64,000 nt of DNA. Source: Escherichia coli. GTDB taxonomy: Bacteria > Pseudomonadota > Gammaproteobacteria > Enterobacterales > Enterobacteriaceae. The notes below the pieces were generated by a model. It searched no databases. It was not told the DNA's origin and worked only from the letters and a program-made list of their open reading frames with translations. Every line of letters begins with the position of its first letter. Position 1 is the first letter of the stretch. Of the stretch, positions 2,354 through 20,616 are shown in pieces. Position numbers and translations under genes: made by a program. Location: NCBI RefSeq assembly GCF_013315695.1, contig NZ_CP054353.1; one strand, written 5' to 3'.

Positions 2354-3373
<1,020 letters not shown>

Positions 3374-3377
<4 letters not shown>

Positions 3378-3685
3378 AGATATTTATGATGAGGACGCTC
3401 GTGCTTATTGGCAGGATTTTCAATCTTAAAGGAGTACTGATGCTGCAGATAAGACTCAACTTTTTCTGACAATTTTTCTGCTACTTCCAGGAAGACTTGC
3501 CGGACGCTCCTTCTGGCTGCTGCCTCATAAAACTCCAGCGCAGCTCCTTCAACACGGTCCATGGCGACATCCAGGTCAAAAATTTCACCGTCAAAGCGTT
3601 CTTTGTCCTGTAAGGCTACAGTTACCGTAACTTTATTCTCAAAATTACGGACTCCTTTCACAACCAGTTCATAGTCTTGAGTCAT
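3374..3685 (-). CDS. ydfR: Prophage protein YdfR (function unknown)
   Basis: 103-aa ORF between the holin and lysozyme genes, overlapping the lysozyme start. Confidence 0.65.
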
Positions 3686-3689
3686 TGGA

Positions 3690-3905
3690 TTACTCTCCTC
3701 TCGCAGCCTTACGCCTGTCTTCTTTAATCTTGAAATAAAGATTTGTCAGATACGTCAGCAGGCCAAAAACCAGGCTACCCAGCACACCGATTGCAGCCCA
3801 CTGTGACGGAGTTACTTTATCGAGTAACTGCAATGCCCAGAAACCAGCATTACCCGCCGATGTGCCATAGGCAACACCTGTTGTTAACTTATCCATTGAT
3901 TTCAT
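3690..3905 (-). CDS. essQ: Class II holin/pinholin (S21-like), 71 aa
   Basis: ORF 3690..3980; internal start [71 protein letters not shown] matches the phage-21 pinholin pattern (two TM helices, charged C-tail). Confidence 0.8.
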
Positions 3906-4124
3906 ATCCTCACCCCGATGTACACGGATGGTGCAATATGTTTGAAAAGCTCGGAGTCTACGGGGTAGTTTTGACAGCACACGTTGTTCTCAACGGCGCT
4001 AAAAAAACATACACATTAAAAATGTGGGTAATTATTTTGAAAGAAAGTCATATATAAAATAATAATACGAGAAATGTTTTCATATTTAGTGTACTGTATA
4101 CGGCCATTTATACAGGAAAAGCCT

Positions 4125-4295
4125 ATGTCAGAACGTAAAAACTCAAAATCACGCCGTAATTATCTCGTTAAATGTTCCTGCCCAAACTGCACCCAAGAGT
4201 CAGAACACAGTTTTTCAAGAGTACAAAAAGGTGCCCTTTTGATCTGCCCTCATTGCAACAAAGTATTCCAGACAAATCTTAAAGCTGTAGCCTGA
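4125..4295 (+). CDS. Small zinc-ribbon protein (C-x2-C ... C-x2-C), hypothetical; possibly ynfU
   Basis: ORF 4074..4295; internal start MSERKNSKSRRNYLVKCSCPNCTQESEHSFSRVQKGALLICPHCNKVF preceded by AGGAAAA; two CxxC pairs. Confidence 0.35.
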   Translation: MSERKNSKSRRNYLVKCSCPNCTQESEHSFSRVQKGALLICPHCNKVFQTNLKAVA

Positions 4296-4350
4296 TTGAT
4301 TTTATTAGTAACAAGTATTTTTTATATTTTAATAATATATTTAAAGCAGA

Positions 4351-4377
4351 TAATAAAAAACCCGCCTGAGCGGGTTT
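4351..4377 (-). terminator. Rho-independent terminator (hairpin aaacccgc-ctga-gcgggttt plus T-run on minus strand) downstream of cspB
   Basis: Perfect 8-bp stem read directly; the minus strand continues with TTTTTTTATT. Confidence 0.6.
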
Positions 4378-4658
4378 GAGATTGTGGTGCTTTTTGTGGG
4401 AGTCATCCACTTACGCACTTTGTTTTGCCATGCCAGCAGTTAGCTTCTGCTGTAAAACTATTCATGCAGCAAACCTGCACTTCACCACAATGGTTAGCAT
4501 ACTTTTCCTGATTAAGATTTTGCCAAATATGCTAGCCATTGTTTCATGTATTGGACCTCCTTACTTTTTATTAAAGAGATCCAATATTCACTACTCTGTC
4601 CGTATCTCTACTCAGGCATCAGCCTTCTTCGTTATCGTATACAGACGAGCGATGAATT

Positions 4659-4874
4659 TTAATCAGTAATGATGACATTTGCTGCTGCAGGACCTTTAGC
4701 ACCACTCTCTATAGAGAAGGTAACCTTTTGACCTTCAAATAAGGTTCGATAATTATCATTCTGAATCGCAGAAAAATGCACAAACACATCTTTACTACCA
4801 TCAACAGGAGAAATAAAGCCGAAACCTTTATCAGCGTTAAACCATTTTACTAAACCAGTCATTTTATTTGACAT
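4659..4874 (-). CDS. cspB: Cold-shock protein CspB (CspA family)
   Basis: 71-aa [56 protein letters not shown]... Confidence 0.9.
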
Positions 4875-5174
4875 TCTACATTCCTTAACTTGAGCCTTTC
4901 GGCATAAATGGTTTGCATAACAGAAACGACTTCGTACTTAATTGGAGAGACTCAAAGAAGGAATAAGTGAATAACACCTGAAATGAGAACTGCTTTAGTA
5001 AACTACTTCGTATATCGTCTGTTCTTCAAACCGACGCAATCATTAACGCATAGTTGAACATATGAAGCAATGTTTATTTTAGACATCCAGCCATCTTCAA
5101 CCCCATCAAAAAACTATAGCTTTCTTCAGGAACGTGTGTATAGTGCGCCAAGTTATCAGTATTAAGGAATTTTT

Positions 5175-5387
5175 TTGTCCCGCAAAATGACAGGAATTGT
5201 CAAAACCTTTGACGGCAAAAGCGGCAAGGGTCTTATCACCCCATCCGATGGTCGTATCGATGTCCAGCTTCATGTTTCAGCGCTCAATCTCCGCGATGCA
5301 GAAGAAATTACCACCGGATTACGCGTGGAATTTTGCCGGATAAATGGTCTGCGTGGCCCTTCAGCTGCCAATGTTTACCTTTCATGA
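5175..5387 (+). CDS. cspF: Cold-shock-like protein CspF
   Basis: 70-aa [42 protein letters not shown]...; CspF/CspH subfamily, assigned cspF by position next to cspB. Confidence 0.8.
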
Positions 5388-5680
5388 GCTATATTAAAGC
5401 TTTAATTTCAGGCCCCATCGGATCACACATGGAGAGTTTTTATGAATAACCCCGTCTGTCTTGATGACTGGTTGATTGGCTTTAAAAGCTTATGCTGTAC
5501 TTTGGCCGTAATAGCTCTGCTAATAATATAATAAGCAGACTCATTGTGTTTAGGGACATTGTACTGGAAGAAAACATTTTAAACATCAGGCAAATAACCA
5601 AGTCACCAGCTAAATAATAAGTTAACAGACATGAGTCCCGGGATGAGATTCAACATTACCATTGCCCCATTTAAAGCACA

Positions 5681-5712
5681 AAACCCGCTCATCAGCGGGT
5701 TTTCTACTTTTT
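5681..5712. terminator. Hairpin terminator between cspF and the Q-like gene (aaacccgct-catc-agcgggttt followed by T-rich tract)
   Basis: Inverted repeat read directly; T-run on plus strand, weaker T-tract on minus strand; candidate late-operon tR-prime. Confidence 0.5.
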
Positions 5713-5808
5713 CTTAACGTCGGGTATACAAAGCCCATCGTTGAAAAAATTTTATCCATATTTTTTGAAAAATGCAAACATCATGTCGCCATCTTCAGCA
5801 AAAATCAT

Positions 5809-6561
5809 TTATCTCGTCACCTTCCTCAATTGCGCTTCCGCGTATGCTTCTTCCTGCCAGCACTTTGTTACCAGTTTACCAATGACGTCCGCATACCCCT
5901 TATACCACTGATAATCGGTCAGGTCTGGTACCAGCTTCTGGACATGACGTCGTGCCAGCGTGGTCGGTAAACGACTAAACCGGTTTCCATTACAACGCCC
6001 ACAAATCTTATATACCGGTACGCCATGAAACCGGGTTCTTTTTTCATCCAGAACAATCCCTTTACCCTTACACCCTCTGCACGCTGTGCTGGCTTCGCCC
6101 TTACCATGGCAATGCTGACATAGTTCCTTCACCCATTCTTCCTTGATTACAGATTCCCCGCGTCTGTAGTGTTTCACCACTTCGCGCAATACATTATAAA
6201 ATCCCGTACCTGAACAATGCTCACAGCGAGCCTTACTTGCCGCAGACCTGGAGTAATCAGCAAAGGCAAAACTCACGAGGTAAGGAATAATCTGTAACCG
6301 GATTTCTTCACTCAATTTGTTCAATGTCGGGTTATTCAGTGCCATCGCGTAATTTAGCAGGCCTTCAATCGCAAACTGAGGGTCCTGAACACCAACTTTT
6401 GCCAGAAATAAGGCCAACCCAAGTGGTGCTTTCGACTGCACCATCCCCTGCGCTGCCATTACATCCGTAATTGTTAAACAACCGGTGCCTGTCGCTGGAG
6501 CGTCATCGCTCAATTTTGGAGATTTTGGGGAGTAATATTTTGGTAAGGCTTCAAGGTTCAT
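5809..6561 (-). CDS. quuQ: Q-like late-gene antiterminator
   Basis: ORF 5809..6591; cysteine-rich zinc-binding region (CQHCHGKGEAS...CRGCKGKG...CGRCNGN) typical of lambdoid Q proteins; lies upstream of the lysis cassette on the same strand. Confidence 0.75.
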   Translation of the reverse strand: MNLEALPKYYSPKSPKLSDDAPATGTGCLTITDVMAAQGMVQSKAPLGLALFLAKVGVQDPQFAIEGLLNYAMALNNPTLNKLSEEIRLQIIPYLVSFAFADYSRSAASKARCEHCSGTGFYNVLREVVKHYRRGESVIKEEWVKELCQHCHGKGEASTACRGCKGKGIVLDEKRTRFHGVPVYKICGRCNGNRFSRLPTTLARRHVQKLVPDLTDYQWYKGYADVIGKLVTKCWQEEAYAEAQLRKVTR

Positions 6562-6574
6562 GCTCGTTCTCCAC

Positions 6575-7663
6575 TTACGCCAGTACGCCAATTGCCAGCG
6601 CGCGATCGATAAAACGAAATATCAGCTCCAGTTGGGAGCCATACTTATCTTCAAATGCCACTGTATCCGTATGCAGCTCGTTGTGATGCTTTCTGCACAA
6701 AGGCAACACAAAGAGATCATGTGCTTTTGTTCCCATTCCGCCCTGCCCGTGACCAATCAGATGATGCGGATCGTCGGCTGGCATACCGCAGCAAGCACAC
6801 GGCTGTGTCTTAACCCAACGTGTGTATTTCTCCTTAACCCAGCGGCGACGTTTAGGCAGCTTCATGAAAGATTCCGGAGACTCTGGATCAACGGTGATGC
6901 TTACCACCGTCTTTTCCTGTGGTGATTTTTGTTGCTGGTGGGCGTAAGGCAACGGTGCAAGATTTTTTGTGCGTTGTTTCAATATGCTGGTGGCGGTCTG
7001 CTCTCCCGGTACGATGTCGCTTTCGCGGTACACCGAGCAGATTTTTTCCGCTGGTAATCCCAGCGAACGACGCGATACAGCCTCAGGTAGTGCATCCACC
7101 ACCTGATTGCAGACCGCCCACCAGGATAATTCAGCCAAAGATAATTCCCGCTCCTGCGTACCGCTTATTGCGTGACGGATGACGTCAATCACCCATGCTG
7201 TCAGATTTTGTTGAGCAAGCAGCTCCAGTGATTCCGATGTCTGGTCACGCAGTTGGTTGTCGCAGTGCCAGCACAACACCATTGCGCCGGTACCATAACG
7301 GTGAATGACTGTTTCAGTGTGATGGTAATCGCCATTAGGCCACTGGCAGGATGTAACATGACGTAATAGCCAGTCGGACAATGCGCCAACGCCGCCAGCA
7401 GCACGAATCACCCGTTCGTTACTAAAAAACGGCAGCAATGTTTTGTCTTCCGCCAGCGGCTGGCGAACGGCAGGAACGACTCCGGATGGCAGATTACGCA
7501 TGCTTTTTGGTTCCGGTTCCACCAGCACTCGAGGATTATGAAATATCTGTATGGATTCACGGCCCGGCTTAAGGACCACCAGCCCAAGCTCAGGCACCAG
7601 AACAGGTCTAAGTAATACCCGCACGTTACCTCCAGATCCGTTGCTGGAAAGTGCGGGACGCAC
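6575..7663 (-). CDS. ydfU: Prophage protein YdfU (DUF968-like, His/Cys-rich motif)
   Basis: 362-aa ORF containing ...CCGMPADDPHHLIGHGQGGMGTKAHDLFVLPLCRKHHNELH...; position before the Q-like gene. Confidence 0.6.
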   Translation of the reverse strand: MRPALSSNGSGGNVRVLLRPVLVPELGLVVLKPGRESIQIFHNPRVLVEPEPKSMRNLPSGVVPAVRQPLAEDKTLLPFFSNERVIRAAGGVGALSDWLLRHVTSCQWPNGDYHHTETVIHRYGTGAMVLCWHCDNQLRDQTSESLELLAQQNLTAWVIDVIRHAISGTQERELSLAELSWWAVCNQVVDALPEAVSRRSLGLPAEKICSVYRESDIVPGEQTATSILKQRTKNLAPLPYAHQQQKSPQEKTVVSITVDPESPESFMKLPKRRRWVKEKYTRWVKTQPCACCGMPADDPHHLIGHGQGGMGTKAHDLFVLPLCRKHHNELHTDTVAFEDKYGSQLELIFRFIDRALAIGVLA

Positions 7664-7904
7664 GTGGTGGGCGTTCGGAATAAGGCAGCCTGACAGAGAT
7701 TATCCAGTGCCGATAGTCGAGACTGAGAGCTTTCTTAACCTCGAACCCGCGCCTGCGGTAAGAATGAATCAGCCATTCGGCCTGTTCTGCAGTGCATGGA
7801 GGGTGCCGGAACCATTCAGACTTGAATGCGTGAGAATACCGCCCGTGCGTGCAGGCAAGAACGGGCGAATTATCAGAATTGTAATATTTTGCGTTGCGTG
7901 CCAT
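7626..7904 (-). CDS. Hypothetical prophage protein (92 aa), overlaps the ydfU start in another frame
   Basis: ORF MARNAKYYNSDNSPVLACTHGRYSHAFKSEWF...; no family recognised. Confidence 0.35.
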   Translation of the reverse strand: MARNAKYYNSDNSPVLACTHGRYSHAFKSEWFRHPPCTAEQAEWLIHSYRRRGFEVKKALSLDYRHWIISVRLPYSERPPRASRTFQQRIWR

Positions 7905-7970
7905 CGGTTTTCTCCGGTGGCACGGTGTTACTCAGCGGGAGTTCAGCCCCGCGCAAGATTGTAGATGAGT

Positions 7971-8222
7971 TTATTCTTCTGAAAAAGCAGAAAAGCCAGC
8001 TTTTATTCCGATCTCTTTCAATACCTGTAATGAAGTGACAAACTCACCGTCGCGCAAGATAAATCCGTCCGTCACTCGGGCATCCACAAAATTAATTAAC
8101 GCAGCCCCATTTTTTTGCAAACACACAATGCGGTAATGACTAACAATATTTCCATTTTCAACGCACACAGCATAGAGGCCATCTTCACAAAAAATTTTAC
8201 GCAGTTCTTCGATGTTCATCAT
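7971..8222 (-). CDS. rem: Hypothetical 83-aa prophage protein; possibly Rem
   Basis: 83-aa ORF located between ydfU and hokD; length and position match my recollection of rem; weak assignment. Confidence 0.4.
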   Translation of the reverse strand: MMNIEELRKIFCEDGLYAVCVENGNIVSHYRIVCLQKNGAALINFVDARVTDGFILRDGEFVTSLQVLKEIGIKAGFSAFSEE

Positions 8223-8340
8223 CAGAATCCTTCCGGATAATTAGCTCTCCCCTTTAAGGGACCATCCCTCTTATCCCTGCGCGCTACTTAAGTATTTTTG
8301 ATTCTATTCCGGCACCGTCCAGAACTTCAAATGCGTTGAA

Positions 8341-8370
8341 AATAAAAACAAAAACCCGCCGAAGCGGGTT
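8341..8370 (-). terminator. Rho-independent terminator of the relB-relE-hokD operon
   Basis: Hairpin aacccgc-cgaa-gcgggtt with a T-run on the minus strand, ~70 bp downstream of the hokD stop. Confidence 0.65.
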
Positions 8371-8438
8371 AAGTGCGGGTGCGTTGAGAATGCCTGCCAC
8401 ATCAGAGGTGGCGAGGGATTTCTCCCTCGCCGGGTCTC

Positions 8439-8594
8439 TTACTCCTCAGGTTCGTAAGCTGTGAAGACAGCGACCTCCGTCTGGCCGGTTCGGATTCGTA
8501 CCTCGCAGAGGTCTTTCCTCGTTACCAGTGCCGTCACTATGACGGTTAAACAGATGACGATCAGGGCGATTAACATCGCCTTTTGCTGCTTCAT
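8439..8594 (-). CDS. hokD: Hok-family type I toxin HokD/RelF (51 aa)
   Basis: Manual translation: MKQQK... at 8594 and ...EPEE-stop at 8439; 52 codons; below the ORF-track cutoff. Confidence 0.8.
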   Translation of the reverse strand: MKQQKAMLIALIVICLTVIVTALVTRKDLCEVRIRTGQTEVAVFTAYEPEE

Positions 8595-8665
8595 AGCCTG
8601 CTTCTCCTGTCAACGCAAAGCAGAAGTGTCACCTTCGGTGCGAAACAGAGATGTCATGCTTTGGT

Positions 8666-8953
8666 TCAGAGAATGCGTTTGACCGCCTCGCTATATACTT
8701 CCGAGCGTTCTCTTTTCCCAACAGAAATCACGAAAACGACAACTTTCTCGTCTATAACCTGGTATACAAGGCGATAGCCTGAAGACCGGAGCTTAATCTT
8801 GTAACAATCAGGCATACCACGGAGCTTGTTTGCTTCAATCCGGGGTGACTCAAGTACTTCAACCAGCTTCTTTTTCAACTGTTCACGTACCGTCGAGCCC
8901 AGCTTTCGCCATTCCTTTAGTGCCCGCTCGTCAAAATCCAGAAAATACGCCAT
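8666..8953 (-). CDS. relE: RelE mRNA interferase toxin
   Basis: 95-aa ORF MAYFLDFDERALKEWRKLGSTVREQLKKKL...; start overlaps the relB stop. Confidence 0.9.
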   Translation of the reverse strand: MAYFLDFDERALKEWRKLGSTVREQLKKKLVEVLESPRIEANKLRGMPDCYKIKLRSSGYRLVYQVIDEKVVVFVISVGKRERSEVYSEAVKRIL

Positions 8954-9192
8954 CAGAGTTCATCCAGCGTCACACGTACTGGCTTAGGATTACGAAGCCG
9001 TTCTTTCACTATCTCCACAAGTTCAGCATCTTCATCACTCAGGAGTGTCTGTTTGAACGGCAAGCGTTCATTGTCAGCGATATACTCGAGCATGAGACGA
9101 AGCGCTTCAGAAGGAGTTACACCCATTTTTTCAAGCGCGGCGTAAGAACGCGCTTTAAGTTCATCGTCAATACGCAGGTTAATGCTACCCAT
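8953..9192 (-). CDS. relB: RelB antitoxin
   Basis: 79-aa ORF MGSINLRIDDELKARSYAALEKMGVTPSEALRLML... (ribbon-helix-helix type). Confidence 0.9.
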   Translation of the reverse strand: MGSINLRIDDELKARSYAALEKMGVTPSEALRLMLEYIADNERLPFKQTLLSDEDAELVEIVKERLRNPKPVRVTLDEL

Positions 9193-9203
9193 GTCTTACA
9201 CCT

Positions 9204-9229
9204 CTTGTAATTACAAATGTCATTACAAG
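9204..9229 (-). promoter_or_regulatory. relBE operator region: two adjacent palindromes TTGTAATTACAA and TTGTAATGACAT just upstream of relB
   Basis: Inverted repeats read directly, 12 bp upstream of the relB start codon. Confidence 0.6.
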
Positions 9230-9522
9230 TATCGCACTACAACATGCTTAGGGCAAGTCACGAAGGAAGTCAGAAAGTAGTCGTAAGAACGGTGATCACT
9301 GTCCGCTTTGTGCCAGGAGCAGCCATTGCTAAGTCCATCCTGTATTGTGCAGGTCAGCTCGTTTTTAAAGAGTCCGGCCATCATCTTACTGGTACAGACA
9401 CCATATACTTTGTGACGGTCAGGCTACATATGCACAACTCAACTTATTCATCTATTTTTTGCTTTAGCATGTCAGTGTTGCTTTCTCGTCGGCGGGTGAG
9501 CGGTGACCTGACCTGTCGATAA
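9217..9522 (+). CDS. ydfV: Prophage protein YdfV (hypothetical)
   Basis: 101-aa ORF divergent from relB; positional assignment. Confidence 0.45.
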   Translation: MSLQVSHYNMLRASHEGSQKVVVRTVITVRFVPGAAIAKSILYCAGQLVFKESGHHLTGTDTIYFVTVRLHMHNSTYSSIFCFSMSVLLSRRRVSGDLTCR

Positions 9523-10429: not shown

Positions 10430-11900
10430 CAGAAACGCGACTTAAGAATCTACCCTATGAATGGATATGCACTCAACCGAATCGATCTTGGTTTCAATCT
10501 TTTTTATCGGGATCAGGCTTCTTTTTAGGTAACTTCGGGGGCTTAACTTGCTGATGACTTTGCGTTCGGCGCGTAAGCCAGGGATGGTCAGCTTTAGGTT
10601 TAACATAGTATTTTGAGCGTAAATCAATACGGGCATTATCCACTCGTTCATGGACACTCTTTTCATCATCCAGTGGTATAGGCTCCGGGCCATCAACATA
10701 CTTTTCCCAGCCCAGCGCTTTCCCGTCATACAGAACGTTAATTTCACCGTCAAAGTTCTCGCATACAGTAACAACCGAATGCCTAAGTCGATATCCCCGG
10801 CCCTCACTGCGTACCTGAAACGCACTGCTTTTGTACTGGAAAGTGAGATTTTTAGACAGAACGCGCTTCGCCTGTAGGCTGAAGATATAACCCAGTTCCT
10901 CTTCAGAATGGTGCACATCAAGATGAGCATTATCAGTAGTACGAGGCGACGTAGCGAACCGGTTGTTATAGGCTTCAATAAAGGTCGGCAACCATGCATT
11001 TGCTGTTTCAATATCACTGATATTCTGAAGCCGCATTTCTTTGACCAGCCTGTCCTGTAGTGTCTGATTGGCGCGCTCTACCCGCCCTTTTGCCTGCGGG
11101 CTGTTGGCATGGATTGGCTCGATGCCCAGTGTCTTTATCGCACGAGTGAACTGGGTCAGCTCACCTTCCCGCTCTGGGTTATTTACCCTGAATATACTGT
11201 GTCTATCAGAGTAGAGAGCGAGCGGTACGCCATGATCATTAAGGTAACCCCGGAGGGTTTCCATGTAAGCCCGGGTTGTTTCAGCAGGCACAAAACGCAA
11301 CGCCATCAACGCACTGGTGGCATCATCAATGAAAACGATCAGTGTACATCTGGGGCCTCGATTTTCAAACCAGTCATGAGGTGAGCCATCAATCTGGATC
11401 AGTTCACCGTAAGATGGTCGTCGCATGCGGCGTTGATATATACGGGCAATTTTACGACGGCGTTCACGCCATAACCCCTCTTCTATCATCCACTTTCTGA
11501 GAGTTTCAACGGATAAAGATAAACCGTGTATCTCGCGCAATTTTTCGCACGCAAACGTAGGTCCAAAATCAGCGTAACGGCCTTTGAGGAGTGAAATTAC
11601 TGTTGCTCTGAATTCAGTAGAAAAGGAATTATTAGGACGCTTTCCACGTCGGTGGGAAACCAGAGCAGAAGGCCCTTCATTTCTATACCGTTGCACCAGA
11701 CGTTTAACCTGCCGAATAGAAATGCCAATGCGTGCCGCAGCTTGTTCCTGAATAATCTGAAGTCGGTGGAGTTCCTTATGACTCATCGTAACAGTCTCTT
11801 TGATCATGAAAAATCCCCCAGAGAATTGTCTGGGGACATTTTAGAATGGTTCAAAGGGGACATTACAGCTTGGTGTTAACAATAGCCTGCTTCTCCGTGC
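10430..11900 (-). mobile_element. Probable insertion sequence carrying a single DDE (rve-type) transposase; boundaries approximate
   Basis: Single 437-aa transposase ORF flanked by non-coding DNA with GGGGACA-type repeats and a candidate imperfect terminal repeat (AGGCTATT... at ~10330 and ~11885); ends not resolved. Confidence 0.4.
10494..11807 (-). CDS. DDE transposase, integrase-core (rve) type with N-terminal HTH (IS481/ISNCY-like)
   Basis: 437-aa ORF with N-terminal HTH (AARIGISIRQVKRLVQRY) and core ...IDGSPHDWF...FIDDATS...YSDRHSIF...SPQAKGRVERANQTLQDRL... Confidence 0.6.
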   Translation of the reverse strand: MIKETVTMSHKELHRLQIIQEQAAARIGISIRQVKRLVQRYRNEGPSALVSHRRGKRPNNSFSTEFRATVISLLKGRYADFGPTFACEKLREIHGLSLSVETLRKWMIEEGLWRERRRKIARIYQRRMRRPSYGELIQIDGSPHDWFENRGPRCTLIVFIDDATSALMALRFVPAETTRAYMETLRGYLNDHGVPLALYSDRHSIFRVNNPEREGELTQFTRAIKTLGIEPIHANSPQAKGRVERANQTLQDRLVKEMRLQNISDIETANAWLPTFIEAYNNRFATSPRTTDNAHLDVHHSEEELGYIFSLQAKRVLSKNLTFQYKSSAFQVRSEGRGYRLRHSVVTVCENFDGEINVLYDGKALGWEKYVDGPEPIPLDDEKSVHERVDNARIDLRSKYYVKPKADHPWLTRRTQSHQQVKPPKLPKKKPDPDKKD

Positions 11901-12141
11901 CTTTCGGCACGTAAGAGGCTAACCTACATGTGTCTAGCATGAAATTGGCCTCAGATTAATGTTAAGCGTCTTGCAGGACGCGTAATGTTAACTGGGGCTT
12001 TTCTCTATCTGCCGTTGGTGTCCATGCCCGAGGCAGATAGCCTCAAGCACCCGCAGTCATTCTACTTAACTAAGATTTCCCCGCAAACCGTTTTTGTCCA
12101 GCACAGTAAATATCCAACTAAACCAATGGAGTTCGCTGTAT

Positions 12142-12321
12142 TTACCGCCAGTATTCAATGCACATGACCGCCATGAACACCCCTAAAAAAAGGGCATTTA
12201 TATATCCAAATATTAATATCAAAACATCAACTTTTTCCATATACCTTGCTGTGAAGATGATGGGCATACATGATGCGAACAACCAGAACGCAACAAACAA
12301 AAACTGCAATGCGTTTTTCAT
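12142..12321 (-). CDS. Small hydrophobic two-TM protein (59 aa), hypothetical
   Basis: ORF 12142..12360; internal start MKNALQFLFVAFWLFASCMPIIFTARYMEKVDVLILIFGYINALFLGVFMAVMCIEYWR preceded by a strong AGGAGG Shine-Dalgarno. Confidence 0.4.
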   Translation of the reverse strand: MKNALQFLFVAFWLFASCMPIIFTARYMEKVDVLILIFGYINALFLGVFMAVMCIEYWR

Positions 12322-13473
12322 TATTCCTCCTACAATCAATGTGCAATTACATTTAAACACACCTCAATTTGGCCGGACATATAAATATCTAAACCAGAAA
12401 AAATCACTTACATAGCGTTACAAACTCTTTAGTCTAAAGGTTCATCGTAAAACATTCCCCATACTTATCAGTCCGTTCCGCGCCAGGTAGCTCATTGCCT
12501 TATCTGGCAACCTGTAATCAGGTTTCCGCTTTTTCAGTTGGCTGGTCGTTTAACCGACATAGTTAATCCATTAATCTAGTTGCCGGATGTTGGTGGATTT
12601 TCGCGTTTTAGTTGTTCATAAAAGTGCACAGCTTTAACCAGTTCTTCTGATGTAACTGGGACTGGTGAGGCAGTGAATAAGGCCTGAATTTGATAGTTCG
12701 GCCTGTCGTTACAATCCTCTTTTTTCGGTACATATTTCCAGTCACCAGACCACTACTTCCCCTGAAAGTCCGTAACGCCTTTTTTTACGTAGCGATATCG
12801 CCATGCCACTGGTTTTGCTTGCCCCGCCGTTTCATGCCCTTCCTGATAATTAATCTCGCTCATTCATCGCCCCACTCATCACAATATGCTTCGACCGGAG
12901 TTTTTCCCGCTTCATAGTCATCACGCTAGGATTCGACATCAGCAGCACTTCCACCGCGTAACTCACCATAGTCCATTAATAGTTCATCCCGCTCTTCAAA
13001 ACTGATGTTATATTTAGCTGAACAAAAATCAGCCACTTTGTTCTTCCTCATCGTCTTTTATTTCGTGGTATGAGTAATTGCAGTAGTTAAAGAAAATTTC
13101 TTATGCTCCGTCATGAATTTCCTCAGGTGTTGCGTCATCGTCCACTTCGAATACATCCTCAAAATCTCCACCAGCTATTCCCGTTTCAATAATAATTTTG
13201 AACTTTCGCATTTCACTACCGCCCTTTCGGGCGGCCTCCTGATGTTCTGAGGGTGCAGAAATCCATCCGGTTAAGGATTAAATTTTATTTACAGAACTGA
13301 ATTTAATTATTCAGATATACGTATCTGTAGCCTTACGAATCTACTCACTGGATGCCTCTTTCATAAAAATAATCCAGTGGGTTTTATCGTTTTTTCCCTG
13401 TTCGTTGACAGATAACAGGTTTTCTGTCTGTCAGTGCCAGAATCTGGCTTACCGGTATTTGCGTTTCATTCCA

Positions 13474-13830
13474 TTAAAAAATCAGAACGCCGTGCGGCCT
13501 CAACACCCGAAAGGCTTCTTTAAATCTCTGTCGCGAATCATCACGCCAGGCATCTTTATTCAGCCGTCCATATTTCTTTCCCATCCAGGCGTTATCACCA
13601 ACACTCTCAAGATGCGGAGGGTCTAATACAACCATCGAAAAAGATGCGTCTGCAAATGATAATGCACGAAAATCTGCGATAATGTCAGGGCTGATAATCA
13701 AGCGTCTCCCATTGCGTAATGTGTATCCTTCTTTTCTGATATCGCTGAATATCGCCCGTTCGTCAGACTTATCGAACCAGAACATGCGGCTGCCACAGCA
13801 CATATCAAGAATGGTTGCCGGTGCACTCAC
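13474..13830 (-). CDS. DNA methyltransferase-like protein, probably C-terminally truncated
   Basis: 118-aa ORF with SAM-binding-like motif ILDMCCGS and catalytic-like motif VVLDPPH; ends abruptly after PHGVLIF. Confidence 0.4.
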   Translation of the reverse strand: MSAPATILDMCCGSRMFWFDKSDERAIFSDIRKEGYTLRNGRRLIISPDIIADFRALSFADASFSMVVLDPPHLESVGDNAWMGKKYGRLNKDAWRDDSRQRFKEAFRVLRPHGVLIF

Positions 13831-14249
13831 TGCGCCACGTCCTGAAAATTACCCTGATAGAAAGCCAGTATGCGCTGCATAACTTCGCTCTTCCGGCACT
13901 CGCGACAGATTATGTTTAGGCGACTGTCGTAGCGACGTATTTCTCCGTCAGGTGATGACCAGATAAGGTCCGGATCAACCACAGCAGGTTTCTTCACCTT
14001 TGCCCTCGAGAGTTTTTTGCGGGCGTTTTGCCAGTCCTTACGCGCCTGTTCAGAGGGGAATAACCCGTAGCCGGAGTTGTATACATCGCCACTGGCTACC
14101 AGCTCTCTGGCAAGAACGCTCATCAGATATCTAGTCGCACCTGTTTTAGCTTCCAGTTGCCGTAACGTCTCACGGCCGCTCTGGCGCACGAGTTCCACCA
14201 CCTGCCATTTAATTTTTTCCCGCTCTTCTTGTGTAAAAACTTTTGCCAC
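13827..14249 (-). CDS. Hypothetical phage early-region protein (140 aa)
   Basis: ORF between the replication-initiator-like gene and the methyltransferase-like gene, overlapping start/stop; no family recognised. Confidence 0.35.
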   Translation of the reverse strand: MAKVFTQEEREKIKWQVVELVRQSGRETLRQLEAKTGATRYLMSVLARELVASGDVYNSGYGLFPSEQARKDWQNARKKLSRAKVKKPAVVDPDLIWSSPDGEIRRYDSRLNIICRECRKSEVMQRILAFYQGNFQDVAQ

Positions 14250-14289
14250 AAGTCCCCCTTAAAATTACCTCATGACCTGAAATCAACAC

Positions 14290-15255
14290 TTATCCTCTGA
14301 AACCAGGCGGAATTTCTGTATCCGGTTCAGAAATATGATTAACACAACGCTGTACAGGTGAACGTCCCAGGCGGATGACCAGTTCGTCCCATTTTTCGCG
14401 GAGCTTTGACGGGCTCATGATGTTTTTTACCCAGAATGGATCTCGCTGAACCCGACCAAACATTTCGCAAATTTGTCTGTGGCTTCTGCCATCCAGCATC
14501 CGCATTGTGCGCACGTCATTGGCCCAGGCAGTCCAGTTAGGCTCTTTTGGTCGCATGATCTCGCCATCATCACTGGCTGCCTGTTCGTAGAGACCCACGA
14601 TCCGCCCCCAGATCCACTGCGCACACGCCAAATCCTCCCTGCTACCCCACTGGCGTTTTTTCGCACTAAACACAACCGCGTCGGAGTTCCGGGTTAAAAA
14701 ATCCTGTTCAGTCGTCTGCGGGTCCGGTTGCGAAGCTTCCGGACGAAAAGTGTTTTTATTCTCTGTAGTAATCTCTGTTGTATTCTCTGTAAGATCATCA
14801 GGCCATTTTGACCCGATGACATTGGGTCGTTTTGAACCAATGGAGCGTTTCATTTTGACCTCTTCCATCGTGTCATTTTGACCTGATGGAGCGGCGCATT
14901 TTGAACCGATGGATTCGCTCAATTTGCCACCATCTAAAAGCTCGCTCCCATAGTTGATCGTGTAGAAATTGGTCATATCGCGCTTTGATTTATTGAGCTT
15001 TTCACAACGCAAAAGCCCCAGCGTTTTCAGACTTGCAAACGCGCGCTTTAACGTTGACTCTGACCAGAATGGGAACTGTTCCAGCCATTGTTCCGTTGTG
15101 TTATAAATCCAGCGAACACCATCACATTCCATGCCGGAGTTGGTATCTCTCAACCAGTAGTGCAGTTGTTGCAAAACAATGGCTTCGTTTAAGCCAATTT
15201 TCATTGCCAGCTGCGTGTTTATAACCAGTGGGCGTTCAGCAAAAAGAAGGCTCAT
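14290..15255 (-). CDS. Phage replication initiator-like protein (lambda O-like), iterons inside the coding sequence
   Basis: ORF 14290..15309 (likely start MSLLFAERPL at 15255); the SIGSK...SIGSK...VIGSK peptide repeats are encoded by a DNA iteron array. Confidence 0.5.
   Translation of the reverse strand: MSLLFAERPLVINTQLAMKIGLNEAIVLQQLHYWLRDTNSGMECDGVRWIYNTTEQWLEQFPFWSESTLKRAFASLKTLGLLRCEKLNKSKRDMTNFYTINYGSELLDGGKLSESIGSKCAAPSGQNDTMEEVKMKRSIGSKRPNVIGSKWPDDLTENTTEITTENKNTFRPEASQPDPQTTEQDFLTRNSDAVVFSAKKRQWGSREDLACAQWIWGRIVGLYEQAASDDGEIMRPKEPNWTAWANDVRTMRMLDGRSHRQICEMFGRVQRDPFWVKNIMSPSKLREKWDELVIRLGRSPVQRCVNHISEPDTEIPPGFRG
14803..14935. repeat. Iteron array (~6 copies of CATTTTGA(A/C)C(C/T)GATGG at ~23-bp spacing); candidate prophage replication origin
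   Basis: Repeats read directly at ~14803, 14827, 14850, 14873, 14896 and 14919. Confidence 0.6.
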
Positions 15256-15757
15256 AATTCCATCCAGCTTTTTGTTGGTATTGCTGTCGATACGCAAGTT
15301 TGAAAGCAATTGCTTTTTCTATAAGTTCGTCAGTTTCACGATCCACTACGGCAGGATCAGCAAAAAGCAGTCCGGACTCCACCACATCGCCATATTCTTT
15401 GTTTAACCCGGCGATCATGCACGTGATGCTTTTTCCGTCAGTAATTTCACGATACAACCTGAAATCATTAATCCGGATAGCCTCCATAATTGCAGGCACT
15501 AGCGCCGTGAACTTTTCACGCTTATCCCTAGTGTCGATAGCCTTCCAGCGTTCAAATATCTTCACTCGATTAACGCCAAGCGCTCGCTGATCAATCGCGC
15601 CACCTTCATATGTGACACGCTGAACATCGATGTTCGGGCGCTCTTTCAAAGCCCAGAATGCTTCAGTGATTAATATCGTCGCCTGCTCCTGTGTCATTCC
15701 TGGTCGACATATCCAGGCATCCAGAGCCTCACGAGCCTGTTCAGGAGTGATTTTCAT
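15236..15757 (-). CDS. Hypothetical phage early protein downstream of the Cro-like gene (173 aa)
   Basis: ORF overlapping the dicC stop; no family recognised. Confidence 0.4.
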   Translation of the reverse strand: MKITPEQAREALDAWICRPGMTQEQATILITEAFWALKERPNIDVQRVTYEGGAIDQRALGVNRVKIFERWKAIDTRDKREKFTALVPAIMEAIRINDFRLYREITDGKSITCMIAGLNKEYGDVVESGLLFADPAVVDRETDELIEKAIAFKLAYRQQYQQKAGWNYEPSFC

Positions 15758-15971
15758 TGTTCAACCGCCCCGCCCGCTTCGTCTTACGATATTCATCATA
15801 AACTTTGGGATCATACTGAAGCTCCCCGCCAGATGCCTCCTGTAGACGCATCGCGCGACCTTCGGGAACTAAATCCCCTTTCCAGCTATAAAGCGAAGCC
15901 AAACGAATACCTGCTGCTTGTGCAAGTTTTGTTTTTGAACCGAAATACAAAAGAGCGTCAGTTTTAAGCAT
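15741..15971 (-). CDS. dicC: DicC, Cro-like regulator of dicB
   Basis: 76-aa ORF MLKTDALLYFGSKTKLAQAAGIRLASLYSWKGD... (HTH), divergent from dicA. Confidence 0.8.
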   Translation of the reverse strand: MLKTDALLYFGSKTKLAQAAGIRLASLYSWKGDLVPEGRAMRLQEASGGELQYDPKVYDEYRKTKRAGRLNNENHS

Positions 15972-15988
15972 TTAAAACACCTTTATTG

Positions 15989-16052
15989 TTAGTCATAACT
16001 AACAAGATAGATGTTAACAAAAACATAGTCAATACGATTTAGCATTAGCTAA
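15989..16052. promoter_or_regulatory. dicA-dicC intergenic operator region with palindromes TTAGTCATAACTAA and TTAGCATTAGCTAA
   Basis: Inverted repeats read at 15989-16002 and 16039-16052 between divergent HTH regulator genes. Confidence 0.55.
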
Positions 16053-16054
16053 CT

Positions 16055-16462
16055 ATGGAAACAAAAAATTTAACTATCGGCGAACGCATCAGGTATCGTC
16101 GGAAAAACCTCAAACACACCCAAAGGTCTCTTGCTAAAGCCCTGAAAATCTCCCATGTGTCTGTATCACAATGGGAACGGGGTGATAGTGAACCTACAGG
16201 GAAGAACCTTTTTGCCCTCAGCAAAGTATTGCAATGCTCACCAACATGGATTCTATTTGGCGATGAAGACAAGCAACCAACACCACCTGTTGAGAAGCCA
16301 GTTGCCTTATCCCCCAAAGAACTAGAGCTCCTTGAGCTGTTTAATGCACTGCCAGAATCAGAACAGGATACCCAGCTCGCCGAAATGCGAGCTCGAGTAA
16401 AAAACTTCAATAAACTCTTTGAAGAATTACTAAAAGCCCGTCAGCGGACAAATAAAAGATAA
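16055..16462 (+). CDS. dicA: DicA, HTH repressor of the dicB operon
   Basis: 135-aa ORF METKNLTIGERIRYRRKNLKHTQRSLAKALKISHVSVSQWERG... (Xre-type HTH). Confidence 0.9.
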   Translation: METKNLTIGERIRYRRKNLKHTQRSLAKALKISHVSVSQWERGDSEPTGKNLFALSKVLQCSPTWILFGDEDKQPTPPVEKPVALSPKELELLELFNALPESEQDTQLAEMRARVKNFNKLFEELLKARQRTNKR

Positions 16463-16534
16463 CATCATCAATGAGTTATCTTTTACCACATCAATTATGT
16501 TAGCTATAGCATACAAAATCACTTGACCGATATG

Positions 16535-16548
16535 TTAGTCATGGCTAA
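16535..16548. promoter_or_regulatory. Third copy of the DicA-operator-like palindrome (TTAGTCATGGCTAA) upstream of ydfA/dicB operon
   Basis: Same palindrome family as in the dicA-dicC intergenic region. Confidence 0.5.
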
Positions 16549-16628
16549 TCTTGTTTGCATCAACACACCGCACGGTGTTCTCAGCAAACAGTTCCGCTAC
16601 CCCAGCGTTAAGGGGAAATGAGGTCAGC

Positions 16629-16784
16629 ATGGATACTATCGATCTTGGCAACAACGAATCTCTGGTGTACGGCGTGTTTCCAAACCAGGACGGCACGTTC
16701 ACCGCAATGACGTATACCAAAAGCAAAACGTTTAAAACCGAAAATGGTGCCCGTCGCTGGCTGGAAAGAAACTCAGGTGAGTGA
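16629..16784 (+). CDS. ydfA: YdfA (51 aa)
   Basis: Internal start MDTIDLGNNESLVYGVFPNQDGTFTAMTYTKSK... within ORF 16551..16784. Confidence 0.7.
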   Translation: MDTIDLGNNESLVYGVFPNQDGTFTAMTYTKSKTFKTENGARRWLERNSGE

Positions 16785-16785
16785 T

Positions 16786-16914
16786 ATGGATTTCGACACA
16801 ATCATGGAAAAGGCTTACGAAGAATACTTCGAAGGCCTTGCCGAAGGCGAAGAAGCTCTCAGCTTCAGTGAGTTTAAACAGGCGCTTTCCAGTTCGGCAA
16901 AATCTAACGGCTGA
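16786..16914 (+). CDS. ydfB: YdfB (42 aa)
   Basis: Manual translation MDFDTIMEKAYEEYFEGLAEGEEALSFSEFKQALSSSAKSNG-stop. Confidence 0.65.
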   Translation: MDFDTIMEKAYEEYFEGLAEGEEALSFSEFKQALSSSAKSNG

Positions 16915-16943
16915 TAAGCGAAACAGCACCGCGAGGAATCAGT

Positions 16944-17162
16944 ATGCAGAAACGAGAACCCGTCATCATCGCGCCAGACTATACCGATGATGAACTTTAT
17001 GAGTGGATGCGCCAGAAAATTAATGCAGCGCAGGATCTGAAATGGGCTAATGAAGCCAGGGCTAAGCAGGCTGAAAATCTGTTCTCTCTGGAGCAGGATA
17101 TCACCAGGCTGGAAAAAGCAGCGGCATTAAGCATTGCCAGAATGATTACATACCCGCGTTAA
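16944..17162 (+). CDS. ydfC: YdfC (72 aa)
   Basis: ORF MQKREPVIIAPDYTDDELYEWMRQKINAAQDLKWANEARAK... Confidence 0.75.
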   Translation: MQKREPVIIAPDYTDDELYEWMRQKINAAQDLKWANEARAKQAENLFSLEQDITRLEKAAALSIARMITYPR

Positions 17163-17502
17163 TAGCTAACCAACGAAGCTAAGGTTGGTAATTAAGGAGT
17201 TCTCCACGGGTGAGGTGGAGTGCGTGCGCCGGACACGGGTGAGCATCCGGCACTGACAGTTTACTGAAAGGATATTTCCATGAAAAGTCAGACCATAACG
17301 CGAAAGCGCACGGCGAGGTAGCTGGTTCATAGATAGCCTGTCGTTAAATTTTCGTCGACCGTGCGCTTCCGGTTGTGGCAACCCGCGAAATGGCGCGGCG
17401 GTAAGTATGGCGGGGTTATTCCTTCCCCGTTGAGGACACCGGGTTGTCAGGTTGACCATACGCTTAAGTGACAACCCCGCTGCAACGCCCTCTGTTATCA
17501 AT

Positions 17503-17557
17503 TTTCTGGTGACGTTTGGCGGTATCAGTTTTACTCCGTGACTGCTCTGCCGCCCTT
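17503..17557 (+). ncRNA. dicF: DicF small regulatory RNA (anti-ftsZ)
   Basis: Sequence TTTCTGGTGACGTTTGGCGGTATCAGTTTTACTCCGTGACTGCTCTGCCGCCC followed by TTTTT matches DicF as I remember it; directly upstream of dicB. Confidence 0.8.
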
Positions 17558-17729
17558 TTTAAAGTGAATTTTGTGATGTGGTGAATGCGGCTGAGCGCAC
17601 GCGGAACAGTTAAAACCAAAAACAGTGTTATGGGTGGATTCTCTGTATCCGGCGTTAATTGTTAACTGGTTAACGTCACCTGGAGGCACCAGGCACTGCA
17701 TCACAAAATTCATTGTTGAGGACGCGATA

Positions 17730-17918
17730 ATGAAAACGTTATTACCAAACGTTAATACGTCTGAAGGTTGTTTTGAAATTGGTGTCACTATCAGTAACCC
17801 AGTATTTACTGAAGATGCCATTAACAAGAGAAAACAAGAACGGGAGCTATTAAATAAAATATGCATTGTTTCAATGCTGGCTCGTTTACGTCTGATGCCA
17901 AAAGGATGTGCACAATGA
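17730..17918 (+). CDS. dicB: DicB cell-division inhibitor (62 aa)
   Basis: Internal start MKTLLPNVNTSEGCFEIGVTISNPVFTEDAINKRKQERELLNKICIVSMLARLRLMPKGCAQ in ORF 17625..17918. Confidence 0.85.
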   Translation: MKTLLPNVNTSEGCFEIGVTISNPVFTEDAINKRKQERELLNKICIVSMLARLRLMPKGCAQ

Positions 17919-18106
17919 ATTCAGCATTTGTGCTTGTTCTGACAGTTTTTCTTGTTTCCGGAGAGCCAGTTGATATTGCAGTCAGTGTTCACAGGACAAT
18001 GCAGGAGTGTATGACTGCAGCAACCGAACAGAAAATTCCCGGTAACTGTTACCCGGTCGATAAAGTTATTCACCAGGATAATATCGAAATCCCGGCAGGT
18101 CTTTAA
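17915..18106 (+). CDS. ydfD: YdfD (63 aa)
   Basis: Internal start MNSAFVLVLTVFLVSGEPVDIAVSVHRTMQECMTAA... in ORF 17861..18106; start overlaps the dicB stop. Confidence 0.75.
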   Translation: MNSAFVLVLTVFLVSGEPVDIAVSVHRTMQECMTAATEQKIPGNCYPVDKVIHQDNIEIPAGL

Positions 18107-18162
18107 AACAGTTCCGTAATAAATATCCGGTTTCATTCTTATATGCCAACAATGGCAGGGAT

Positions 18163-19326
18163 TTGTTCATCCTTAAATCTGTCATGAGGTTAAAACAAAT
18201 GAGTAAAGTCTTTATTTGCGCCGCTATTCCTGACGAACTGGCAACAAGGGAAGAAGGCGCTGTGGCTGTAGCCACAGCCATTGAAGCTGGCGACGAACGC
18301 CGTGCTCGAGCAAAATTTCACTGGCAATTCCTGGAACATTATCCGGCTGCTCAGGACTGCGCTTATAAATTTATTGTCTGCGAGGATAAACCTGGCATAC
18401 CCCGCCCTGCCCTCGATTCATGGGATGCTGAATATATGCAGGAAAACCGCTGGGATGAGGAGTCTGCTTCTTTTGTCCCGGTTGAGACTGAATCCGATCC
18501 GATGAACGTCACTTTTGACAAGCTGGCCCCTGAAGTACAGAACGCTGTCATGGTTAAGTTCGACACATGTGAAAACATCACCGTTGATATGGTTATTAGC
18601 GCACAGGAATTGTTGCAGGAAGACATGGCAACATTCGACGGACATATCGTTGAAGCGTTGATGAAAATGCCAGAAGTTAACGCCATGTATCCGGAGCTTA
18701 AGCTGCATGCCATCGGGTGGGTTAAGCATAAATGTAAGCCTGGTGCCAAATGGCCCGAAATTCAGGCAGAGATGCGCATCTGGAAAAAACGTCGCGAAGG
18801 TGAACGTAAGGAAACCGGAAAATACACGTCTGTTATTGATCTCGCCCGCGCCAGAACCAATCAACAGCACAGTGAAAATTCAACAGGAAAAATCAGCCCG
18901 GTCATTGCTGCCATTCATCGCGAATACAAGCAGACATGGAAAACACTGGATGACGAACTGGCCTACGCTCTCTGGCCTGGTGATGTGGATGCCGGAAACA
19001 TTGACGGCAGCATCCATCGCTGGGCAAAAAATGAAGTTATCGACAACGACCGCGAAGACTGGAAGCGTATCTCGGCATCAATGCGCAAACAGCCTGATGC
19101 CCTTCGCTACGACCGCCAAACTATTTTTGGCCTTGTCCGTGAGCGTCCGATCGACATTCACAAAGATCCCGTAGCACTGAACAAATATATCTGCGAATAC
19201 CTGACGACAAAGGGCGTGTTTGAGAATGAAGAAACAGACCTGGGCACTGTTGATGTTCTCCAGTCATCAGAAACACAAACTGATGCAGTGGAAACTGAGT
19301 ATTTCCAGACATCTGTTATCACTTAA
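18163..19326 (+). pseudogene. ydfE: ydfE-like prophage gene whose 3-prime end runs into IS2 (C-terminus replaced by IS-derived codons)
   Basis: ORF continues 27 bp past the IS2 boundary at 19300 before stopping; true start uncertain (candidates at 18199 or 18403). Confidence 0.55.
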
Positions 19327-20202: not shown

Positions 20203-20616
20203 TTTTTTGCCCGTCCATATTCAACGGCTTCTTTGAGGAGTTCATTTTCCATCGTTTTCTTGCCGAGCAGGCGCTGGAGTTCTTTAATCTGCTTCATGGC
20301 GGCAGCAAGTTCAGAGGCAGGAACAACCTGTTCTCCGGCGGCGACAGCAGTAAGACTTCCTTCCTGGTATTGCTTACGCCAGAGAAATAACTGGCTGGCT
20401 GCTACACCATGTTGCCGGGCAACGAGGGAGACCGTCATCCCCGGTTCAAAGCTCTGCTGAACAATTGCGATCTTTTCCTGTGTGGTACGCCGTCTGCGTT
20501 TCTCCGGTCCTAAGACATCAATCATCTGCTCTCCAATGACTAGTCTAAAAACTAGTATTAAGACTATCACTTAAATAAGTGATACTGGTTGTCTGGAGAT
20601 TCAGGGGGCCAGTCTA
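19300..20616 (-). mobile_element. IS2 copy (1317 bp), missing ~14 bp of one terminus
   Basis: insC/insD ORF pair; one end GGTTGTCTGGAGATTCAGGGGGCCAGTCTA intact at 20587-20616; the other end matches IS2 only from TATTTCCAGACATCTG inward. Confidence 0.8.
20160..20525 (-). CDS. insC: IS2 OrfA (InsC)
   Basis: ORF 20160..20570 with internal start [41 protein letters not shown]... Confidence 0.85.

Follow-up and report, generated by a model that had tools for sequence, protein, structure and literature searches.

Which of the small open reading frames (ORFs) in the late region of a cryptic prophage are genes, and which of them are already known under another name? The window analysed here, a stretch of 64,000 nucleotides, corresponds to the Qin cryptic prophage of E. 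coli and has a DNA identity of 99.7-99.8% to many genomes. The initial annotation had listed three small ORFs of this region as unassigned, one at 4125-4295 and two, at 7626-7904 and 7971-8222, between ydfU and hokD, and it left open which of the last two was the gene called rem in K-12. All three ORFs are present at these positions. Our results indicate that they are genuine Qin prophage genes, namely ynfU, rem and an unnamed phage gene of 92 residues. The explanation that accounts best for all observations together, to which we give a probability of roughly 0.85, is that the region contains three genuine small genes belonging to a lambdoid prophage of the Qin type and that the 92-residue gene forms a fixed unit with ydfU. 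All three ORFs stand out from chance, because two of them are named genes with curated family models and the third displays codon-position bias and dN/dS values well below 1. The ORFs were rightly regarded as plausible small genes, and the term unassigned does not hold for the first and the last of them. The initial annotation had also named a lack of conservation or expression as a sign against these ORFs. Conservation was found for all three, and evidence of expression for ynfU only. The region as a whole is ordinary and mostly known already: ynfU and rem are catalogued, the third ORF has been called by the NCBI automatic annotation (PGAP), and little changes in knowledge. The new element is only the unnamed 92-residue gene, which is omitted by the K-12 reference annotation.

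The two catalogued genes, ynfU and rem

The ORF at 4125-4295 (+ strand) is ynfU (b4776), as indicated by RefSeq annotation, Pfam and NCBIfam. It encodes a basic protein of 56 amino acids (pI 9.6) that carries two zinc knuckles of the CPxC type, CPNC (residues 19-22) and CPHC (residues 41-44), in agreement with the zinc-ribbon type first proposed for it. RefSeq annotates the gene in C600, MSB1_4I and NC_000913.3. The protein scores 107.3 bits with the Pfam family YnfU (PF23499; cut-off 27) and 79.4 bits with NCBIfam NF038384 (cut-off 36). Its neighbours are the holin gene essQ/essD (3690-3905, - strand) on one side and cspB (4659-4874, - strand) on the other, and a Shine-Dalgarno-like AGGA (4114-4117, + strand), read off the sequence, stands 7 nt ahead of the ATG; the location and the reasonable ribosome-binding site reported earlier were thus both confirmed. 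YnfU of K-12 agrees in every respect: its 56-aa sequence is identical, its gene likewise lies between the holin gene and cspB, and it has the same two knuckles. The K-12 protein was detected by means of an SPA tag after Ribo-RET (bioRxiv 10.1101/511675), a study in which zinc binding was inferred from the motif, and ynfU scored positive in PIRT-Seq (PMC12350097). The two knuckles presumably hold one zinc ion. The gene reads in the direction opposite to the lysis genes essQ, ydfR, rrrQ and rzpQ and is translated in K-12. A longer form of 73 aa, starting from the ATG at 4074, was rejected, since alignments to the curated family profiles begin with the first residue of the 56-aa form and the RefSeq start is 4125. 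Upstream, a promoter-like TTGAAA-18-AATAAT (4037-4066, + strand) is a consensus match only, at 10 of 12 positions, and is weak, since promoter-like sites in the ynfU region are not more numerous than the shuffled expectation. Between the convergent ynfU and cspB lies a G+C-rich hairpin (4358-4377) whose sequence is terminator-like on the - strand.

The 92-aa ORF and the 83-aa ORF are both on the - strand, between ydfU and hokD (8439-8594, - strand), and are surrounded by many toxin-antitoxin genes, e.g. hokD and relBE. The 83-aa ORF (7971-8222) is rem (b1561), as annotated in near-identical records and in NC_000913.3, and one of the two ORFs is therefore the K-12 gene, as had been supposed. 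Its product is acidic (pI 4.9) and identical to K-12 Rem (NP_416079) at 77 of 83 residues; the K-12 protein has the same length and its gene the same site between hokD and the 92-aa gene, and the window copy differs by six substitutions. The rem part of the window shows about 98.6% DNA identity to K-12, compared with 99.7% for the wider region. Rem matches PHROG 340 (E 3.5e-22), its homologues carry the precomputed Pfam family PF27490, and dN/dS of the gene is 0.14-0.43. A GGAAGGA (8234-8228) precedes the ATG, and the sequence after hokD, upstream of rem, contains an intrinsic terminator-like hairpin (8353-8370, - strand). No fold or family match that would give a function was found for Rem, and no evidence was found for expression of rem in K-12. 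The gene is restricted to phages of Escherichia and Shigella and occupies the variable cargo site after hokD.

The unnamed gene and its junction with ydfU

The ORF at 7626-7904 (- strand) encodes a basic protein of 92 residues (pI 10.3) that belongs to PHROG 1212. In PGAP annotation it is a "hypothetical protein", with the accession WP_012304870 in derivatives of K-12 and WP_032147666 in the strain that matches best, and nothing is annotated at this place in NC_000913.3, mEp460_ev081 and phage Evi. The PHROG 1212 match (E 5.9e-35) extends over profile positions 1-66 of 66 and covers residues 27-92. The protein thus has a variable N-terminal extension of 26 aa, a conserved 66-aa core with predicted strand-helix-strand-strand order, and a basic tail. 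In the AlphaFold2 model the core has a pLDDT of 93-96. Within the core dN/dS is 0.06-0.18 at dS 0.4-0.9, which means strong purifying selection and therefore conservation at the protein level. The N-terminus shows values of 0.35-1.1, and its first 26 residues are nearly unconstrained. A GGAG (7915-7912) is located 7 nt ahead of the ATG. A Pfam search gave no match at E <= 1, a search of PDB chains by sequence with the family profile gave nothing below E 0.1, and no fold or family match that would give a function was found for the 92-residue protein. The K-12 start coordinate, 1644584, is absent from the supplement of a 2021 preprint on ribosome profiling of E. coli small ORFs; nor does the gene appear with the positive PGAP-only genes of PIRT-Seq (PMC12350097), whose supplements contain nothing on it. 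Judged from sequence, this ORF, located between ydfU and rem, is a separate and conserved phage gene subject to purifying selection, and it is lacking in the K-12 reference record NC_000913.3 and in several phage records.

The downstream gene ydfU (b1560; 6575-7624, - strand; start GTG 7624-7622) encodes, according to annotation, Pfam and PHROG, a DUF968 protein with a C-terminal HNH-type nuclease motif. YdfU scores 256.8 bits with DUF968 (cut-off 27.8) and 26.3 bits with HNHc_6, slightly below the cut-off of 26.6, and its residues 1-349 are covered by PHROG 96 "HNH endonuclease" (E 2.8e-171). DUF968 combines an Orf-like N-terminal recombination domain with a C-terminal HNH motif, as described for members from phages of Gram-positive bacteria (PMC4118853). 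The stop codon TAA of the 92-aa gene (7628-7626) is followed by one base and then by the GTG of ydfU, and the Shine-Dalgarno sequence of ydfU, GGAGG (7629-7633, - strand), which stands 4 nt ahead of that GTG, is made up by the two codons, TGG AGG, that precede this stop. Because the stop is one base from the ydfU start and the last two codons provide its ribosome-binding site, ribosomes finishing the 92-aa gene can start ydfU directly. At all E. coli-type loci (9/9) the 92-aa gene ends 1 nt ahead of the DUF968 gene, and distant homologues share the junction in the form of TGG AGG, TGG GGG or TGG AAA, then a stop, 1-2 nt and a start. The 5' neighbour at E. coli-type loci varies and may be rem-like, hokD, or toxin-antitoxin genes of the ParDE or RelE type. 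The 92-aa gene is the first of a fixed two-gene unit with ydfU. It may be added that the embedded ribosome-binding site, and not the function of the protein, could account in part for the conserved C-terminal W-(R/G/K).

Alternative readings of the 92-residue ORF

If the 92-residue ORF were no gene, either the antisense ORF of 137 aa that is open in the window (7551-7964, + strand) would be the gene, or the stretch would be an untranslated leader of ydfU. This reading, which would agree with the three records that annotate nothing at the ORF, with the antisense call in the record of phage PhiR42_1, and with the absence of any trace of expression in the ribosome-profiling supplement, is barely credible in view of the diverged copies. 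In all eight of them the sense frame is open, whereas the antisense frame contains 2-4 stops in four of the eight and is cut to 85 aa in mEp460_ev081. For the sense frame as a whole dN/dS is 0.13-0.33, and the variable sites are distributed over the codon positions as 26/26/57, with an excess at the third. In addition, the full length of 88-92 aa is retained in the family down to 64% identity and indels are whole codons, many phages have homologues of the protein (37-48% identity) that are called as genes, and the fold is predicted with confidence. The antisense frame is therefore judged to be a shadow ORF, excluded by the stops in the diverged copies, and the PhiR42_1 record annotates the wrong strand by mistake. 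Comparison of diverged loci also bears on the start of ydfU, for which the initial annotation had reported an overlap of 38 bp with the 92-aa ORF. Such an overlap requires a start at the upstream GTG (7663), which gives the longest ORF (362 aa), and it was apparent only because the longest ORF was taken as ydfU. That ydfU truly starts there is highly improbable: the counterpart of this GTG is missing at each of the 7 diverged loci inspected, while 8 of 8 loci keep the GTG at 7624, which has a GGAGG 4 nt ahead of it; the 349-aa YdfU is matched by the PHROG 96 profile from its first residue onwards; and the RefSeq start is likewise the GTG at 7624. The overlap is thus replaced by a conserved start one base past the stop.

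It might be argued that the ORF, although translated, is a coupling device only, which brings ribosomes to ydfU and yields a peptide without function. The conservation across the family of the stop-start arrangement with its embedded Shine-Dalgarno sequence, as well as an N-terminal part nearly free of constraint (dN/dS up to about 1), would be compatible with this. Nevertheless we consider it unlikely, since a pure leader ORF would not need the constraint found in the 66-residue core, and this core is kept across genera (30-50% identity; one Tyr is invariant, and positions with Phe, Ala, Leu, Asp and Trp are nearly so) and reaches pLDDT values above 90 in the predicted fold. A different proposal, in which Rem and the 92-aa protein would be partners in a toxin-antitoxin pair, comes from the labels "Antitoxin Rem" and "toxin to Rem" that the entries for phages vB_EcoS-813R8 and PhiR42_1 carry. 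In its favour, about 64% of the matching E. coli records (2793/4352 cover both) have rem next to the 92-aa gene, one product is acidic and the other basic, and toxin-antitoxin genes are common nearby (hokD, relBE). However, many prophages and phages carry the 92-aa gene with no rem beside it, its 66-aa relatives from other genera are never accompanied by rem, and the gene that constantly goes with it is the nuclease gene downstream. From rem it is separated by a gap of 66 nt, without coupling. Neither protein matches any PADLOC model or Pfam toxin-antitoxin family, Rem matches SocB at chance level only (E 0.064; 12 bits against a cut-off of 210), and a literature search for the two labels found no supporting paper. 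The labels in the phage records therefore have no support, and such a pair is very unlikely.

The PHROG 1212 family and its possible role

With the 92-residue ORF taken as a real gene that forms a unit with ydfU, its relatives show how constant this arrangement is. Homologues of 66 aa are found in Gifsy-1, Gifsy-2, mEp237, phiES15, PY54, GF-2, Klebsiella phages and metagenomic contigs, where they come after a DUF1367, YbcN or RdgC gene. At seven of the eight loci with the next gene visible, the homologue directly adjoins that gene (from a 2-nt gap to a 4-nt overlap), and in six of these seven the adjoining gene is an annotated or recognised nuclease of the HNH, NinG or Rv2179c-like exonuclease type; at locus L096 the gene after the homologue gave no family match. 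PY54 has a spacing of 48 nt before the next gene, to which no function is assigned. Longer proteins that contain the core (P0258, P0264, P0280, P0285 and others) have it fused to unrelated phage proteins (replication protein O, Cro, baseplate J or lysozyme); they were set aside, being taken as chimeric or decayed loci that are uninformative.

It is only from gene order and translational coupling that we infer a nuclease partner in the 92-aa protein. The small basic protein would act together with the recombination nuclease encoded downstream, and it might use its compact core and its tail rich in arginine to bind either DNA or that nuclease. A doubtful but possible generalization is that PHROG 1212 proteins are accessory factors of the nin-region recombination nucleases (DUF968, HNH, NinG, exonuclease), made at a fixed ratio through coupling and targeting or restraining the nuclease on DNA. 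If this were true, E. coli K-12 would have an intact, unnamed copy of such a factor that has been overlooked by its reference annotation. In any case, the constant and translationally coupled place before recombination nucleases in many enterobacterial phages offers a simple testable lead for the family.

In position, the counterpart of the 92-aa protein in lambda is NinF, likewise small and encoded in the nin region immediately before ninG, the nuclease gene. There is no detectable sequence relationship between the 92-aa family and lambda NinF, NinE or NinH (hhalign probability 0.15-0.32%). The known members of PHROG 1212 include Gifsy-2 STM1021.1n, mEp237 gp51, phiES15 gp17 and PY54 ORF47, and Orf QD1 of phage N15 is more distant. 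These relatives share with the window protein the 66-residue core, a place in the nin region with the replication genes on one side and Q on the other, and the tight 3' junction. In contrast, the E. coli type carries an extra, poorly conserved N-terminal extension of 24-26 residues, and it precedes a DUF968 gene, whereas the relatives precede a short HNH or NinG gene.

The Qin prophage setting and the genes ynfU and rem

The stretch 3000-9500 is the Qin cryptic prophage. E. coli chromosomes match it from end to end at 99.7-99.8% identity, and their gene order is rrrQ, ydfR, essQ/essD, ynfU, cspB, cspF, ydfT (quuQ), ydfU, rem, hokD, relE and relB (window coordinates are those of the matching loci L001 and L002 plus 1499). 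Reading of the ORFs placed three small ones (56, 92 and 83 aa, on strands +, - and - respectively) where the initial annotation had put them. Its description of them as unassigned holds only in part: two are named K-12 genes, ynfU and rem, and automatic annotation already calls the third, which still has no name. The overall finding is therefore ordinary, and the only small addition is the annotation gap and inconsistency around the 92-aa gene, together with the family-wide coupling of that gene to recombination nucleases.

The 56-aa ORF (4125-4295, +) is ynfU (b4776 in the MG1655 reference); this reference, C600 and MSB1_4I all annotate its product as 'putative zinc-binding protein YnfU'. The CxxC pair and reasonable Shine-Dalgarno site noticed earlier were both found, as CPNC and CPHC and as AGGA 7 nt 5' of the ATG. 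The protein clears the curated thresholds of Pfam PF23499 and NCBIfam NF038384 by a wide margin, and it probably binds zinc. YnfU was discovered by profiling ribosomes stalled at initiation and was then tagged on the chromosome, in a study that reported its level to be the highest among newly detected small proteins and remarked on its pair of CPXC zinc knuckles (bioRxiv 10.1101/511675); ynfU also scored as coding in PIRT-Seq, a transposon-reporter screen (PMC12350097). The gene is found in the phage genome records PhiR42_1, HannyBb, Tritos and 2H10, and relatives at 59-63% occur in a Klebsiella phage and phage PHB10. The window copy lies between a promoter-like site (4037-4066) and a hairpin (4358-4377), both of them consensus matches only.

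The 83-aa ORF (7971-8222, -) is rem (b1561), as annotated in the same three records, which settles which of the last two ORFs corresponds to rem. Its product matches PHROG 340, and the precomputed Pfam family of its homologues is PF27490; these homologues are found only in prophages of Escherichia and Shigella and in a small number of E. coli phages. GGAAGGA lies 5 nt 5' of the ATG. Since dN/dS against diverged copies is 0.14-0.43, rem is maintained as a protein. A terminator-like hairpin directly 3' of hokD (8353-8370, -) and a promoter-like site about 80 nt 5' of rem (TTGAAG-18-TAGAAT, 8301-8330, -), both consensus matches only, suggest that transcription of rem and of the genes 3' to it might not depend on hokD.

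Compared with K-12, the rem/92-aa stretch (7500-8300) has about 98.6% DNA identity, against 99.7% for 3000-9500 as a whole; 77 of the 83 Rem residues are identical and six differ, while YnfU is unchanged. This suggests a small mosaic patch. This part of Qin has a collinear counterpart at 11000-22000 of the PhiR42_1 record (PV340562, submitted as the whole genome of a phage from ECOR13), with flxA, ydfV, relBE, hokD, rem, ydfU, Q, cspF, cspB, ynfU, holin and lysozyme, so full phages of Qin type may still exist. The leaders of cspB (4643-5035, -) and cspI (1749-2134, -) are covered by hits to the whole length of the cspA thermoregulator RNA family, at 159 and 113 bits. At 11881-12052 (-), Rfam recognises the sok antitoxin RNA (104 bits; gathering score 59), a sign of another hok/sok-type locus, several kb from hokD and beyond the span of the initial annotation. 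The known small protein gene ynfS (b4750), a 29-aa ORF at 5442-5531 (+) with a Pfam YnfS score of 80.9 bits, falls within the span of the initial annotation, which left it unmentioned.

Coding evidence for the 92-aa gene

Judged from its sequence, the 92-aa ORF (7626-7904, -) is a real gene, as yet unnamed. Across thousands of E. coli genomes, PGAP lists it as a "hypothetical protein". In the curated MG1655 record no feature is annotated between ydfU (b1560) and rem (b1561), although the MG1655 copy is intact with the single substitution R33Q. The phage mEp460_ev081 record omits the gene though the ORF is intact there, that of PhiR42_1 carries an antisense 137-aa ORF in its place, and that of vB_EcoS-813R8 names it "toxin to Rem". 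GGAG lies 7 nt 5' of the ATG. Relatives with identity as low as 64% are still 88-92 aa long, and insertions and deletions comprise whole codons. In pairwise comparisons dN/dS is 0.13-0.33 for the entire ORF, 0.06-0.18 for residues 27-92 and 0.35-1.1 for the first 26 residues, with dS at 0.4-0.9; conservation is therefore at the protein level and not at the DNA level.

Two rival ideas, that the antisense ORF is the gene or that the stretch is non-coding, fail on reading frame and substitution pattern: none of the eight diverged copies has a stop within the sense frame, four of them carry 2-4 stops in the antisense frame, and variable alignment columns fall on codon positions 1, 2 and 3 as 26, 26 and 57. 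The antisense 137-aa ORF (7551-7964, +), though annotated in PhiR42_1, was rejected as a shadow ORF because stops disrupt it in half of these copies. The Qin operon that holds rem and the 92-aa gene is repressed by DicA in K-12. This fits the absence of an expression signal for either gene in the PIRT-Seq supplements and in the supplement of the 2021 E. coli small-ORF ribosome-profiling preprint.

The junction with ydfU and other nuclease genes

A 38-bp overlap with ydfU had been proposed, which rests on the most upstream GTG (7663). This start was rejected: RefSeq uses GTG 7624 (349 aa), which is preceded by GGAGG at 4 nt and kept in all eight diverged loci, while the upstream GTG is absent from all seven examined; the PHROG 96 profile alignment also begins at residue 1 of the 349-aa form. 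The real layout is thus the 92-aa stop TAA (7628-7626), one base, and the ydfU start. In all nine E. coli-type loci the gene ends 1 nt before a DUF968 gene, while its 5' neighbour is not constant (rem-like, hokD, or toxin-antitoxin genes of ParDE or RelE type). In distant phages, the homologous 66-aa gene is preceded by DUF1367, YbcN or RdgC, and it is directly joined to the next gene (2-nt gap to 4-nt overlap) in seven of the eight loci where that gene is visible. In the one exception, PY54, 48 nt separate it from a gene of unassigned function. The next gene is an annotated or recognised nuclease (HNH, NinG/Rap or Rv2179c-like exonuclease) in six of the seven joined loci, and in locus L096 it had no family match. 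Throughout the family, the next gene takes its Shine-Dalgarno site from the two final codons of the small gene (TGG AGG, TGG GGG or TGG AAA). By gene order and junction sequence, the small gene and the nuclease gene make up a conserved, translationally coupled unit of the nin recombination region. A study of phage Orf recombinases, drawing on members from Gram-positive phages, describes DUF968 proteins as a fusion of an HNH nuclease motif with a DNA-binding domain resembling Orf (NinB) (PMC4118853). The 92-aa protein, small and basic (pI 10.3), may work with the downstream nuclease or on its DNA substrate. The label 'Phage antitermination protein Q' that the DUF968/YdfU homologue of mEp460_ev081 carries (3099-4148 of its locus) looks mistaken.

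Protein family and predicted fold

The PHROG 1212 match covers residues 27-92. Homologues of 66 aa, at 37-48% identity by tblastn, are present in Gifsy-1, Gifsy-2, mEp237, SPN3UB, phiES15, PY54 and Edwardsiella and Klebsiella phages. When 1.84 billion representative proteins were searched with a profile, only 100 matched at E <= 0.001, most of them stand-alone at 65-69 aa; the family is small and apparently enterobacterial. One Tyr is invariant in its alignment, and Phe, Ala, Leu, Asp and Trp positions are near-invariant. AlphaFold2 predicts a strand-helix-strand-strand core (pLDDT 93-96), with the N-terminal extension and the arginine-rich tail less ordered. No family match was obtained in Pfam, NCBIfam or PADLOC, and no sequence relative among PDB chains.

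The tight junction might be taken to mean that the ORF is purely a "coupling leader" for ydfU. This is unlikely, as the core of its product is under strong constraint and has a predicted fold. Nor does a toxin-antitoxin pair of Rem and the 92-aa protein, as some record labels imply, hold up: it failed the co-occurrence test, neither protein matched a PADLOC model, and a literature search found no papers backing the labels 'antitoxin Rem' or 'toxin to Rem'. The 92-aa gene has a positional counterpart in lambda, where ninF occupies the same place just 5' of the nuclease gene, although the 92-aa protein is unrelated to NinF, NinE or NinH.
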